DNA of 45,349 nt. It comes from Escherichia coli. GTDB lineage: Bacteria; Pseudomonadota; Gammaproteobacteria; Enterobacterales; Enterobacteriaceae. The stretch's first letter is position 1, and each line of letters begins with the position of its first letter. Below the pieces are notes generated by a model. It was given only the letters and a program-made list of their open reading frames with translations, did not search any database and was not told the DNA's origin. Location of the stretch: assembly GCF_003334405.1 (NCBI RefSeq), contig NZ_QOWM01000023.1. One strand, written 5' to 3'. Shown here piece after piece: positions 10,020 to 44,041 of this stretch. Position numbers and translations under genes: made by a program.

Positions 10020-12653
10020 TCAGGCAAGCCGGTAACTGAACGTCCGTGACTGGCCGGGTAAAAAAGGCCCCGATAGATTTGAACCTTGATTTTCCTCGGT
10101 GGTAATGTGTTCATCCATCATCGTTTCTGAGCAAGAAATCACCTCGCGACTGAAAGCAACAGTCGCATCACAGGTTGCTGATTCAGCCGGATTAAACAGC
10201 CGTAAAATCACTTCTTGTCGGTCTTCAGCTTTCTTAAGTGCGCTTATCAGGCATCCCACTGGGGGCATTTTCAACAAACTATAACTTTCCGGCACGTTGA
10301 ATCCGGCTTTGTTGAGCTTCATCACATCCCATGGGATTTTGTTGTAACACTGTACTGGAGTCAGCCATGCTCGCGCCTGCTGAGCTACACCAGCGGCGGT
10401 TGGCGTACCGGTATAACTCAATAAACTTAGGCGACAAGAAAGCAGACCACGTAGTTGTGAGTCCGGGACTGGCATTTTAATTCCCGAAGGCCGCCCAGGC
10501 CTTAAAAGCAGATCTTCTTTGCCCAGTAAGCCCACGCCACGCAGCAACGTAATGGCAAAGGTTTTCTTCTCTTCACCGATGACTTCAAATTCACGTAACC
10601 CTTCGCTAAAGACAGCCATGCCGTTACGCCCTTCCTGTAAGGCAACATAGTTGAGCATATTCCATACCGGAACCGGCGCTTCTTTCCAGCCTTCTTGCTG
10701 CCAGTTGTTCATTGCACTGTCGTTCACGGGGCGCGTTAGCGAACCAAACTGCGTATCTGCCAGAACACTGTCGGTGTTAAAAGGTGTAGGGACCAGGACA
10801 CGAAGGCGATGATCGTCAGCCTGGTTATCAAGATTGATATCCACATCAATACGCCTGCTGTTATGACTAAGAGTGACAACCAACACCACCCCTACTCTGC
10901 CAGTGGATTGCCGGGCGCTGCGTTCTGACAAATTGAGCGGCACTGCCATGTCATAGCGGATAACAGCCCTGCTCTGCCAGGCTTCATGAATAATATCGCA
11001 TTGCGGTTTCGCGTTCGCTGCGGTAATTACCCACTCTTCTTTTGCGGGTGAATAGTCATATTCATCACCATCATCAGAGCTTTCTTCAATTTGCAATACC
11101 CGGTCATAGCGCACACCGCTGTCTTTATCTACCAGTTGCAGAGAACCATCCTCATTGAGCGCAATTTGCCAGAAAGCATTTTCCAGTATCCCTTCAGCGT
11201 CACTTTTTGCCGCAATTACGTTGCCAGGCTGATTCGCTTCGATATAAAGCGTGCGATAGCCCATAGAAGGGACAATCTGGTTGATCTGTATATCAAACTC
11301 CATAAAGGGATCATAATTACCGTAATGAACTATTTGCCGATCGATTAGGCCTGGATCGATCTCACGGGCATGGCGAATAAAATACGGTACAGGCTGACCG
11401 CGATCGTCCCGCAAATTAAACTGGCTGGCGCGCAGCCGCACAGTGGTGTTGATAACTTCTTCACGCGGCCAGGGCATCAGGTTAAACAGGACGAGTTTGT
11501 CGGCGTCGCTCTGCGGCATGTTGTCGGCAATTTTGCGCATGTAGAAACGAATCAGATTATCCGCCATGTCTTCAGCCAGTTCGAAGCGGGCGACGATTTC
11601 GCGATGAACTTTGTCACTACAGCAGCAGCCGATACTGTCGTGGGCATGATTTTTTAAGATCTCTTTCCACATTTTCTCCAGCAAGCCGTGGTGGTATTCA
11701 AAACCCAACGTCCAGGCCAGTGTTGCCAGCGGTTCCAGCAGATTAACAATCTTATTTTCAATACGCGCGTGGGCAATTTTGATATCCATACGCGTAGAAC
11801 CGATGGTGCGATGCACGCGCATATATTTGCCATCAATAAATTCCCCTTTCAGGGTTGCCAGATTATCTCGCTGCGCTTCGATCTTCTCAAATACCTCTTC
11901 AAAGCGGCTCATCACAAACTTACGTTGAGGGTAGATCTCACGTAGCTTATCCATCACTTCGAAGATATTTTGCTGCAATGGCATCTGGTCATGCCCATTC
12001 GGCAGCAAAATCTCTTTGGTTACAGACGCTTTTTCCAGCACGTCAAAATAACTGTCGAGGCGTTTACGTAATCCGTTTTCGTCGGCAGGTAAGTACTTAC
12101 CGATGGCGTAGCCCAGCGGCAGCACCTGCGCCGTCACTTCGCTACCGTCACTGCTTTGCCACAAAAACTCGGTTTTATCAGTACCGTGGCGCTCCGAACA
12201 TCCGCGCCAGAACATGGTGCGGGTAATGCCAAATCCATTGTAGATATGCGGCAGTTGCCCGGACATGCCAAAGGAATCTGGTAAATAACCTATTTTCATC
12301 GGCTCGCCAAACGCGAGGCAGTCACGCATTCCGTACATCAGATTACGGACGATGGATTCCGCAGAAACAATCGTGGTATCGGTCTGGGTATACCAGGGGC
12401 CGATAATCAACTTGCCGGCTTCTACCTGTTTCTTCACACGGTCTTTGTTTTCCGGTTTCACCGCGAAATAATCTTCGAGGATCGCCGTTTGCCCGTCGAG
12501 TACGTAATATTTGTATTCGTTGTCCTGTTCCAGTCGGCACAGGATCTCTTCCATATTATTGACCAGCAGAATACGTGACTCTTCGGTGGTGAAATACCAC
12601 TCTCGATCCCAGTGCATATGCGGGGTGATGTGAACGCGAGATACTGCTTTCAT
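10020..12653 (-). CDS. mngB: Mannosylglycerate hydrolase (GH38 alpha-mannosidase)
   Basis: 877 aa, [30 protein letters not shown] (GH38 N-terminal motif); immediately downstream of mngA. Confidence 0.93.
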
Positions 12654-12670: not shown

Positions 12671-14647
12671 TTATGGCATTACGCCATCAGTCAGATAGTT
12701 GCCATGCTTAACCGCGTGACGCCGCCACATCAGGAGAATTGCAGTCGAGATTGCAGCCCCCACCAATGCCGCGCCAAACCAGCCAATTGCCGCCATAACA
12801 CCGCCCGCGCCATTATCATGAAGTAAAAAGAGCGAGAAAATGCCGGCACCGGGTGTCGAAAGGCCGATATTCATCGCACCGACAATAGCGCCCGTTACCA
12901 TAGAGCCCAGCACAAACGAACCAATAACCCGCAGCGGATCTTCAATCGCCATCGGGATCGCCCCTTCGGTAATACCTGCCAGCCCTAACAGCCAGGTGGA
13001 TTTCCCGGTCTCAATTTCAAACTCTTTAAACAGGCGCGGTGCGAGCATCGTGGAAGCGGTTACGGTAAATGCCGAAACCATTTTGACGGAGGCGAAAATG
13101 GCATACGGGCCGTAAACGCCGTTCGCCATTGCGCCCAGGCAGAATGCATAAGCGGCTTTATTCACTGGCCCTCCAAGGTCAAAGGAACACATAAAACCGA
13201 GAATGGCACCCAGCAACAGCGCGTTACTTCCTGACAGACCGTTCAGCCAGGCGGTAAGCGAGTTATTGATCCAGGCGACAGGTTCCCCCACCACAAACAG
13301 CATCAGACTGCCCGCTCCCAACGTACCGAGCACCGGGTAGAGATAAAAAGTCAGGAATCCATTGAATTTACTGCTAAGACGCAAGTGATTTTTCACCCAG
13401 CGCATCAAGTAACCGGCTATCAATCCGCCAACGACCGCGCCGAGAAACCCGGAGCCGATCATGTTGGCGGCAAGTCCAGCCGCAAAGCCTGGCGCTAACG
13501 CCGGTTTATCTGCCAGAGAATAGGCGGTATAGGCCGCGAGCACCGGTACCATCAAAATTCCGAGCAGCCCGCCGCCCAGCTTGCGGTACATCCACAGCCA
13601 GGAGTTTTCTTCATTAAACAGATCTTGTAGCCCGAAGATTTGCGACAGTAATACCGCGACCGCCAGCACCGTGCCCCCCGCGACAATCAACGGTACGGCA
13701 AAAGAGATTCCGCTCAACAGTGCCTGTTTCAGCTCCGTTTTGACACTTTTCACCGGTTGCGTATCTTGCTGTACGGTACGCGTCTCATCGCTACGCTTGA
13801 GGGTAAGCGCTTGTTGGATCAACGCTTCTGCATGGCGAATCGGCTCGGCAACAGGCACTGAAAGCGCGGGAATGCCATTAAAACGCTCACTCTCCTTGAT
13901 GGCGACTTCAGCCGCAAAAATACAGGCGGTTGCACTATTGAGTTGATCCGCCGTTAAACGCCCTTCAATGCCGTTAGCGCCTTGTTTTTCAACGTAAACA
14001 TTTACGCCGAGTTTGCGTCCGGCTTTTTCCAGATATTCCGCAGCCATATAGGTGTGAGCAATACCCGCCGGACAGGCCGTTACGCAGACGATAGTTGGCG
14101 CGTTGGAAAAAGAGGCAGAAGGTTGCGTGCCTCCCTTGTCATCCAGCGCCGAGAGCAACTCATCAGGCGTCGTCGCCGACTGTATACGCGCCCGAATCTC
14201 ATCATCCGCAAGGCGCGTGGTCAGCGCTGTCAGCAGTTGCATATGCGTAGTACCCGCTTCATTGGGGGGAATCGCCAGCAGCACCACTAAATCAACTGCT
14301 TCCGGGCCATCAACGCCTTCCCACTGAAGCGGCTCGCTGAGTGTGGCGACCGCAAACGCCGCTTCTTTTACCGCAGCAGTTTTGCCATGCGGCACAGCCA
14401 ACCCTTCACCTAAGGCGGTCGGGCCAAGGCTTTCACGGCGATACACTTCTTCCAGAAATTGCTCAGTACTGGAAATTTTCCCCAGAGCAGCAAGACGTTG
14501 AGTCAACGCGTGGATGGCCTCTTCACGGCTGGTAAAGCGCGCATTCAGACACAACGCATCGCGGTGGGTCAGAGTCGTCAGATTCATCATGATCCTCACT
14601 TGATCGTTTTTATAGTCGCGCCAGTGTGCCCGATAAAACAATACCAT
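12671..14647 (-). CDS. mngA: PTS 2-O-alpha-mannosyl-D-glycerate-specific EIIABC component
   Basis: 658 aa with PTS EIIA(Fru)-like, EIIB and polytopic EIIC regions; fits the mngR/mngA/mngB context. Confidence 0.92.
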
Positions 14648-14755
14648 TATGTGATCAATTTCACTTGATTGAAATTATTTGTATTGTATTTGTATTATTT
14701 ACAGGATGAATTTATCGGGCATGATGGTTAAATTCGTATTAATGAGATACTAAAA
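14648..14755. promoter_or_regulatory. Divergent mngA / mngR promoter-operator region
   Basis: 108-bp AT-rich intergenic region containing the inverted repeat AATTTCA-N6-TGAAATT (14657-14676) and tandem TGTATT repeats (14681-14697). A candidate MngR (GntR/HutC-family) operator, by inference. Confidence 0.35.
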
Positions 14756-15478
14756 ATGGGACACAAGCCCTTATACCGGCAGATTGCCGATCGCATTCGT
14801 GAACAAATTGCGCGTGGCGAGCTTAAACCTGGCGATGCGTTACCCACTGAATCAGCGCTACAAACAGAGTTTGGCGTCAGCCGGGTTACGGTGCGTCAGG
14901 CTTTGCGCCAGCTAGTCGAGCAGCAGATCCTCGAAAGCATTCAGGGCAGCGGGACTTACGTCAAAGAAGAGCGGGTCAATTACGATATTTTTCAGTTAAC
15001 CAGTTTTGATGAAAAACTGTCGGACCGTCACGTCGATACACACAGTGAAGTTCTGATATTCGAAGTGATTCCGGCTGACGATTTTCTTCAGCAACAGCTA
15101 CAAATCACCCCGCAGGATCGTGTGTGGCATGTGAAGCGCGTGCGCTATCGCAAGCAAAAGCCAATGGCGCTGGAAGAAACCTGGATGCCGCTTGCGTTGT
15201 TCCCGGATCTCACCTGGCAGGTCATGGAAAATTCGAAATATCACTTTATCGAAGAAGTGAAGAAAATGGTTATCGATCGTAGCGAACAGGAAATCATTCC
15301 TCTGATGCCAACCGAAGAGATGAGCCGTCTGCTTAATATCAGCCAGACAAAGCCGATTCTTGAAAAAGTATCGCGTGGATATTTAGTTGATGGTCGGGTG
15401 TTTGAATATAGCCGCAACGCTTTTAATACCGATGACTATAAATTTACCCTGATAGCGCAGCGAAAATCATCGCGATAA
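14756..15478 (+). CDS. mngR: GntR/HutC-family transcriptional repressor MngR (FarR)
   Basis: 240 aa, N-terminal GntR-type HTH (ALPTESALQTEFGVSRVTVRQALRQLVEQQILESIQGSGTYV) and UTRA-type C-terminal domain. Confidence 0.93.
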   Translation: MGHKPLYRQIADRIREQIARGELKPGDALPTESALQTEFGVSRVTVRQALRQLVEQQILESIQGSGTYVKEERVNYDIFQLTSFDEKLSDRHVDTHSEVLIFEVIPADDFLQQQLQITPQDRVWHVKRVRYRKQKPMALEETWMPLALFPDLTWQVMENSKYHFIEEVKKMVIDRSEQEIIPLMPTEEMSRLLNISQTKPILEKVSRGYLVDGRVFEYSRNAFNTDDYKFTLIAQRKSSR

Positions 15479-43860: not shown

Positions 43861-44041
43861 CTGGCGTCCTTTTTTATCTTTTTAGTTATTCCAAAGGTTA
43901 AATTTTGATCACCTGTAGGCGTTAAAGCAAAGATGAAAATCGTGATTTACATCACAATTTTCATGATCTTGCCCTGCCCCGTCCCTTGCTCTCATGTCTT
44001 TCTGTATGTATTTTATATTTTTCTCTTTCTGGTGTTGTTCA

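Follow-up and report, generated by a model that had tools for sequence, protein, structure and literature searches.

TGTATT boxes, rather than the neighbouring palindrome, as the predicted MngR operator of the divergent mngR/mngAB control region of Escherichia coli

Which sequence does MngR read in the interval that separates its own gene from mngA? This interval occupies positions 14648-14755 of a 45,349-nt stretch of Escherichia coli DNA, hereafter the window, and the region contains two candidates: an inverted repeat, AATTTCA-N6-TGAAATT, and a series of TGTATT repeats. The first-pass annotation of this DNA had proposed that one or both of them are MngR sites, and had considered that the operator could not be chosen from sequence alone. 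The analysis reported here favours a definite answer, namely that the region controls mngR and mngAB divergently, that MngR reads the TGTATT boxes and not the palindrome, and that a putative CRP-type activator site serves mngAB. I put the probability of this reading at about 0.85.

That the interval is the mngR/mngA divergent region, as first proposed, was borne out by the profile matches of the flanking genes. The 658-codon open reading frame on the minus strand (12671-14647) matches the NCBIfam equivalog for the PTS 2-O-alpha-mannosyl-D-glycerate transporter MngA with 1286 bits, and the open reading frame that follows it (10020-12653, minus strand) matches the equivalog for the mannosylglycerate hydrolase MngB with 1509 bits. 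On the other side, the 240-codon open reading frame at 14756-15478 (plus strand) encodes a GntR/HutC-family regulator that matches PRK09764, which corresponds to MngR, with 524 bits. The two divergent frames are 108 bp apart, and the same 108-bp gap is annotated in K-12 MG1655. The 241 bases around the interval are present, and annotated as mngR/mngA, in 3868 of 5426 complete E. coli genomes; across this 241-bp region, the window allele differs from that of MG1655 by a single base.

MngR, formerly named FarR, belongs to the HutC subfamily of the GntR family. The regulators of the HutC family mostly bind palindromic operators, with the consensus GTMTAKAC and a GT-N4-AC core (PMC4494728). FarR is an exception within the subfamily: its sites are made of TGTATTAWTT in direct repeat (Quail, Dempsey and Guest 1994, as cited in PMC4494728). 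MngR is described as repressing mngA and mngB only (Sampaio et al. 2004, as quoted in secondary sources), and mngRp as being regulated by MngR via two binding sites placed around the promoter (bioRxiv 10.1101/2024.12.09.627516).

Comparison with the published MngR/FarR sites, which the first-pass annotation had suggested as a check, showed that the TGTATT repeats match TGTATTAWTT. The string of repeats, TTGTATTGTATTTGTATT, occurs once, at 14679-14696; it had been correctly noticed, although its coordinates (14680-14697) were placed one base too far to the right. The perfect match to TGTATTAWTT at 14691-14700 is the only one in the 45-kb window, and three matches with two mismatches (8 of 10 positions) lie at most 110 bp from it, at 14680-14689, at 14735-14744 and, on the minus strand, at 14636-14645. 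The arrangement TTTGTATT-N3-TTTGTATT is likewise unique in the window, where 0.05 occurrences are expected, and it is conserved across genera.

Conservation was assessed in a comparative data set. A scan of representative genomes for MngR yielded 38 loci, in all of which mngA is divergent from mngR; they come from Citrobacter, Enterobacter, Kluyvera, Buttiauxella, Pluralibacter, Pseudocitrobacter, Lelliottia, Leclercia, Atlantibacter, Superficieibacter, Serratia, Edwardsiella and others. Together with the window and a second, 90%-identical E. coli allele, they gave an alignment of 40 mngA/mngR intergenic regions from more than 15 enterobacterial genera. Five blocks are conserved in this alignment: AATAC at 14640-14644, TTATGTGATCA-n-TTTCAC at 14647-14664, ATTTGTATT-nn-ATTTGTATT-r-TTTAC at 14677-14702, GCATAAT at 14719-14725 and GGTATTA at 14735-14741. 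The lowest conservation of the region is found at 14666-14675, a stretch that holds the right arm of the palindrome. Several distances are also kept. AATAC and TGTGA are separated by a fixed 10 bp in all sequences where this was scored, the two TGTATT boxes stand 11 bp apart in 40 of 40, the second TGTATT box lies 7 bp from TTTAC wherever TTTAC is present, and a 16-nt spacer separates TTTACA from CATAAT. By contrast, the TCAC half-site is separated from the first TGTATT box by anything from 12 to 14 bp in the same set, and the sequence in between is unconstrained.

The TGTATT repeats therefore combine the published motif with the strongest phylogenetic footprint of the region. Their conserved unit consists of two boxes, both on the plus strand. 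The first direct repeat, box B, lies at 14677-14686 (ATTTGTATTG), with its TGTATT core at 14680-14685, at about -52 to -47 of the predicted mngR promoter described below; its TTTGTAT core is invariant in 40/40. The second, box C, lies at 14688-14700 (ATTTGTATTATTT), includes the perfect motif TGTATTATTT at 14691-14700, and abuts and overlaps the mngR -35 element. A PWM built only from the two boxes of the other species was scanned over both strands of the 45-kb window. Its best match in the whole window is box C (14688-14699), with 20.6 of 20.6 possible bits, and its second best is box B (14677-14688), with 19.3 bits.

The string in the window can also be read as TGTAT-TGTAT-T-TGTAT, that is, as three tandem TGTATT hexamers with a period of 5-6 bp forming the recognized unit in place of two boxes spaced by 11 bp. 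The middle TGTAT of this reading (14685-14689, plus strand) coincides with the variable linker between boxes B and C. A GTA linker, which generates the middle repeat, recurs in a few of the sequences (Atlantibacter, Edwardsiella and one Enterobacter), and Quail is said to have described, in 1994, sites with two or three repeats. Yet the linker is TAA, AAA, CTA or similar in about 30 of the 40 divergons, which leaves no third hexamer, while the two ATTTGTATT boxes keep their exact 11-bp spacing in 40/40. Moreover, the middle register scores 8.3 bits with the PWM, against 19-21 bits for the boxes that flank it. I therefore regard the three-hexamer unit as improbable: the window looks like three hexamers because its 3-nt linker happens to be GTA, and the conserved unit is not three hexamers. 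The two-box TGTATT repeats are the already published MngR (FarR) operator and, as such, known; that MngR protects them here is predicted from the match. What is added amounts to modest, curatorial refinements: the conserved 11-bp two-box core, additional boxes, a predicted class II CRP promoter and a probably mis-annotated K-12 start codon. Neither the CRP-type site nor the question of the start codon had been raised in the first-pass annotation, which had also passed over two further MngR boxes.

Outside the intergenic region, the MngR repeat is weakly matched by CGTAATATTT and TGTATTCGTT, which overlap each other at 12503-12521 in the 5' part of mngB, on the strand opposite to the gene. A PWM match at 12509-12520 (13.4 bits) was considered as an MngR site and set aside: a similar string is partly kept at this place in three other species, but coding constraint is the simplest explanation for that.

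The inverted repeat AATTTCA-N6-TGAAATT is located exactly where it had been reported, at 14657-14676. A genuine operator at this place, for MngR or for another dimeric regulator and acting on mngA in E. coli, would account for its perfect 7+7 symmetry around a 6-bp spacer and for its position between the two divergent promoters; palindromes are, besides, what most HutC-family regulators bind (PMC4494728), and the allele that carries this one is the majority allele of E. coli, found with at least 99% identity in 2557 of the 3868 genomes. Conservation argues strongly against such a role. The palindrome is missing from every one of the 38 other species and also from the second E. coli allele, whose annotation shows both mngR and mngA to be intact: at the homologous position, the arms are complementary at 7 of 7 bases only in the window/K-12 allele, and at no more than 5 of 7, with a median of 3, in the 39 others. 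The right arm falls in the sole unconstrained stretch of the region, and the left arm owes its conservation solely to its overlap with TTTCAC, one half of the adjacent conserved block. Nor is such a repeat statistically remarkable, since 18-23% of random 165-mers of matching composition (the G+C content of the region is 31.5%) harbour a perfect inverted repeat with 7-nt arms and a spacer no longer than 12 nt, which amounts to a chance expectation of about 20% of comparable sequences. Finally, AATTTCACTTGATTGAAATT does not contain the GT-N4-AC core of HutC operators (GTMTAKAC) and is not conserved in both arms, and the published MngR motif, as cited in PMC4494728, is a direct repeat of another sequence. 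An operator function of the palindrome is accordingly very improbable, and I judge this repeat to be a lineage-specific feature that probably arose by chance, its right arm being, by all appearances, an unconstrained linker. A structured RNA or DNA element was also considered and rejected: no Rfam family matches the region, the hairpin that the palindrome could form as single-stranded DNA is weak (-3.2 kcal/mol, z = -0.99), and the element lies outside both predicted transcripts. The proposal that one or both repeats are MngR sites thus holds for the TGTATT repeats and fails for the inverted repeat, and the view that sequence could not decide between them was too pessimistic, given that comparative sequence and the published motif together do so.

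The position of these elements relative to mngA depends on where translation of mngA starts. The statement that the inverted repeat lies about 10 bp upstream of the mngA start applies only to the start of the 658-codon frame, at 14647; the conserved start, an ATG at 14590 or 14587 (minus strand), is about 67-70 bp away. Several observations support the latter. The match to the NCBIfam MngA profile sets in only at residue 20 of the 658-aa frame; in three other E. coli genomes, PGAP chooses the ATG at 14587 for mngA; tblastn alignments with 38 orthologues extend no further than the MMNL... N-terminus (14590 or 14587); and in nearly all genomes the short start comes directly after a Shine-Dalgarno sequence, GAGGA (14593-14597 in the window). 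Conversely, the 19-codon extension has no ATG in the second E. coli allele and meets in-frame stops 4-8 codons upstream in many genera. The mngA start is therefore probably at 14590 or 14587, which would place the K-12 annotation 57-60 nt too early. With the short start, the region between the genes becomes a real non-coding region of about 14591-14755, and the repeats come to lie 67-105 bp upstream of the mngA start codon, in ordinary promoter and operator territory. In the K-12 annotation, mngA starts 19-20 codons upstream of the conserved start (14588-14647 in the window, 765984-766043 in MG1655). The extension is not conserved and no Shine-Dalgarno sequence precedes it; it runs across the predicted mngA promoter, the real ribosome-binding site and one of the MngR boxes.

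On the mngR side, a consensus scan identified a putative promoter at 14698-14725 (plus strand), composed of a -35 element TTTACA (14698-14703), a 16-nt spacer and a -10 element CATGAT (14720-14725), with a predicted start at about 14732. The pattern TTTAC(A/T)-16-CATAAT is kept in about 35 of 40 sequences, CATAAT being the form found in K-12 and most species. Relative to the predicted start, the paired boxes B and C extend from -52 to -32 and overlap the -35 element, while a further single box occupies +4 to +13. This is box D (14735-14744, plus strand; CGTATTAATG), whose (C/G)GTATTA is shared by most species and lies 16-18 bp past the mngR -10 element; it scores 12.7 bits with the PWM (14732-14743) and ranks fifth in the window. 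Box D is likely to be a second autoregulatory site. The presence of boxes on either side of the mngR promoter fits the two binding sites reported around it (bioRxiv 10.1101/2024.12.09.627516), and I infer that the paired boxes and box D correspond to the published footprints.

A different mngR promoter, TTGAAA-18-TATTAT, was proposed from sequence by Shimada et al. (2014). The consensus scan also finds this arrangement, at 14669-14698, where its -35 element overlaps the right arm of the palindrome. It was rejected as the main mngR promoter, as its -35 element is not conserved; it could at most be a secondary promoter specific to E. coli.

Some variation was noticed around the mngR promoter and in its leader. 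Position 14722, the one base at which the 241-bp region departs from MG1655, is a G in the window and an A in K-12 and nearly all other species, so that the -10 element reads CATGAT instead of CATAAT; the exact window allele is also found in the pig isolate YSP8-1, in which mngA is annotated as frameshifted. In four loci of the comparative set (L009, L021, L029 and L036), an extra inverted box, AATACAAAA, follows the GGTATTA box, about 22 bp 5' of the mngR ATG. In several genera, which have longer mngR leaders, the extra inverted box creates a GTATT...AATAC palindromic pair in the 5' UTR, and E. coli has a shorter version of this pair, GTATTAATGAGATAC, at 14736-14750. A perfect 11-nt inverted repeat, TGCCCGATAAA at 14627-14637 and TTTATCGGGCA at 14711-14721, has its arms 73 bp apart, an arrangement that arises in about 0.6% of shuffles. 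Each arm begins just upstream of the -10 element of one of the divergent promoters and runs into it. This repeat is partly kept in Citrobacter, and only the GGCA beside the -10 element is widely conserved.

What drives mngAB? The conserved block next to the palindrome contains a CRP-type site, TGTGATCAATTTCACT, at 14650-14665; the corresponding 22-mer (14647-14668) is centred at 14657.5 and includes the left arm of the palindrome, which coincides with its promoter-distal half. This sequence agrees with the CRP core TGTGA-N6-TCACA at 9 of 10 positions, and the lac CRP site has an identical TGTGA-N6-TCACT core. Across genera, GTGATCA and TTTCAC are both conserved while the base between them varies. 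The half-site that faces mngA is a perfect TCACA, and in 40/40 sequences it is followed, after exactly 21 nt, by a hexamer that has the properties of a -10 element. In the window this hexamer is CACACT (14628-14623, minus strand), with a predicted transcription start at about 14616. Elsewhere it is CACAAT (14/40), TATGAT, TAAAAT, CATGAT or CAGGAT, with an A at position 2 and a T at position 6 in 40/40, and it is usually preceded by TGn, the G at -14 being found in 38/40 and the T at -15 in 31/40. The invariance of A2 and T6 together with the upstream TGn is the signature of a -10 element, often of an extended one; the window version, a poor CACACT, does not have the TG. Relative to the start at 14616, itself predicted from the conserved -10-like hexamer, the CRP-type site is centred at -41.5. 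Class II CRP promoters, such as galP1, have CRP centred at -41.5. Species differ by up to 2 bp in how far the CRP-type site stands from the mngR promoter, whereas its distance to the mngA hexamer is fixed, which indicates that the site is phased with mngA and not with mngR. A TATAAA hexamer (14614-14609) was examined as an alternative mngA -10 element and discarded: no positions are invariant at a fixed offset elsewhere, and CRP would sit at a non-canonical -55.5.

Squeezed between the CRP-type site and the predicted mngA -10 element is the fourth MngR box, box A (14636-14646, minus strand; TGGTATTGTTT), which is inverted with respect to boxes B to D and spans about -30 to -20. The bases G, T, A, T and T at -28 to -24 are conserved in 36-40 of 40 sequences at a fixed offset. 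The window allele reads TGGTATT and is a weak match (8.1 bits with the PWM), while most other genera have TGTATT. Box A is the likely operator for mngAB.

Should the TGTGATCAnTTTCAC block nevertheless be ascribed to something other than CRP? It might be part of an extended MngR operator, box A being only 10 bp away, or a site for another regulator, for example of the FNR type. The spacer of the CRP-type site is conserved beyond the needs of CRP alone, its GATCA and TTT positions being kept better than in typical CRP sites, and in about one third of the species GTGATCAC is a perfect GT-N4-AC palindrome. Furthermore, the literature searched, including the CRP genomic SELEX paper and its supplements, yielded no link between CRP and mngA or mngAB, though RegulonDB, EcoCyc or the primary papers may record one. 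On the other hand, variation within GTGATCA(A/C/T) is confined to its eighth base, while the TCAC six bases further on is conserved, so that the palindrome is not what is kept. The core matches that of CRP at 9 of 10 positions and resembles that of lac, whereas an FNR reading of the same block (TTGAT-N4-ATCAA) fits at only 7 of 10 and was dropped. The predicted -41.5 geometry relative to a hexamer with invariant A2 and T6 likewise fits class II activation. The reading of GTGATCAC as a HutC-type GT-N4-AC palindrome was rejected on account of its variable eighth base and because its inner bases misfit GTMTAKAC (PMC4494728). A role other than CRP binding is thus unlikely, if less so than an operator role of the neighbouring palindrome, and the block is best described as a conserved and apparently unrecorded CRP-type activator site, which predicts a class II CRP-dependent mngA promoter. 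The full proposal is that mngAB is driven by a hitherto unrecorded class II cAMP-CRP promoter (site 14650-14665, -10 element 14628-14623, start at about 14616), that a single inverted MngR box lies in between, and that the curated 658-aa start makes the protein 19-20 codons too long, the extension containing promoter and operator. Taken as a whole, it is advanced tentatively, its chances being a little under even. One more match to the CRP core with at most one mismatch exists in the window, CGTGATTTACATCACA at 43941-43956, in AT-rich surroundings.

The arrangement of these sites suggests a scheme for the regulation of the locus. MngR bound to the paired boxes (14677-14700) and to box D (14735-14744) would bracket the mngR promoter and repress its own synthesis. 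MngR bound to the inverted box A, in the spacer of the mngA promoter, would exclude RNA polymerase from mngAB; the occupancy of this box may be helped by the paired boxes 40 bp away, across the CRP site. Mannosylglycerate, or its phosphate, would release MngR and thereby cause induction, after which cAMP-CRP would still be needed for full transcription of mngAB. The operon mngAB would then be a sugar-PTS operon activated by cAMP-CRP in the class II mode and repressed by MngR.

How does this arrangement compare with known systems? The closest is the FarR/MngR operator of E. coli K-12, which is the same locus with one base different; it has direct repeats and sites on both sides of the mngR promoter and, as far as it is described in the sources cited here, nothing essential differs. 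Additions to that picture are the core of two boxes spaced by 11 bp, the box in inverted orientation on the side of mngA and the conservation across genera, although the primary papers may already describe them. NanR, with TGGTATAW repeats, and NagQ, with TGGTATT repeats, resemble MngR in that they use tandem short GTAT boxes and not a palindrome (PMC4494728), but they are other regulators with other regulons, the sequence and spacing of their boxes differ, and NanR belongs to the FadR subfamily. The likeness to the palindromic operators of the HutC family, for example the dre sites of NagR/DasR, is limited to the presence of an inverted repeat in the control region of a HutC-type regulator, since that of the window lacks both conservation and a GT-N4-AC core and is statistically ordinary. 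With class II CRP promoters that are coupled to a specific repressor, as in sugar-PTS operons, the predicted mngA promoter shares the TGTGA-N6-TCAC(T) core, a promoter-proximal half-site that abuts the missing -35 element, an extended -10 TG in most species and a fixed distance to the -10 element; it differs from them, as predicted from its sequence, by a repressor box squeezed between the CRP-type site and the -10 element.

The outcome is mainly corrective. For a characterised, single-target repressor of E. coli, sequence combined with comparison suffices to assign the operator, and the palindrome does not merit annotation as a binding site. The 5' end of mngA that is annotated as coding in K-12 probably holds a promoter, an MngR box and a ribosome-binding site, which matters for the design of deletions, fusions and reporters. 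From the conserved CRP-type site, one would expect the use of mannosylglycerate to be under catabolite control, and the mngA side would offer a compact natural example in which an activator site, a repressor box and a -10 element fit within about 45 bp.

The distribution of the locus within E. coli deserves a comment. The mngR-mngA control region is missing from 1558 of the 5426 complete genomes, and the second allele, 90-95% identical, is found in about 600 genomes, which makes the locus both accessory and dimorphic within the species. In strain 1217KP (L003, 1528-1566), neither predicted promoter, nor the CRP-type site, nor any MngR box has survived a natural deletion of about 158 bp, corresponding to about 14621-14778 of the window, which has also taken the first mngR codons and leaves 37 bp between the annotated mngR and mngA.
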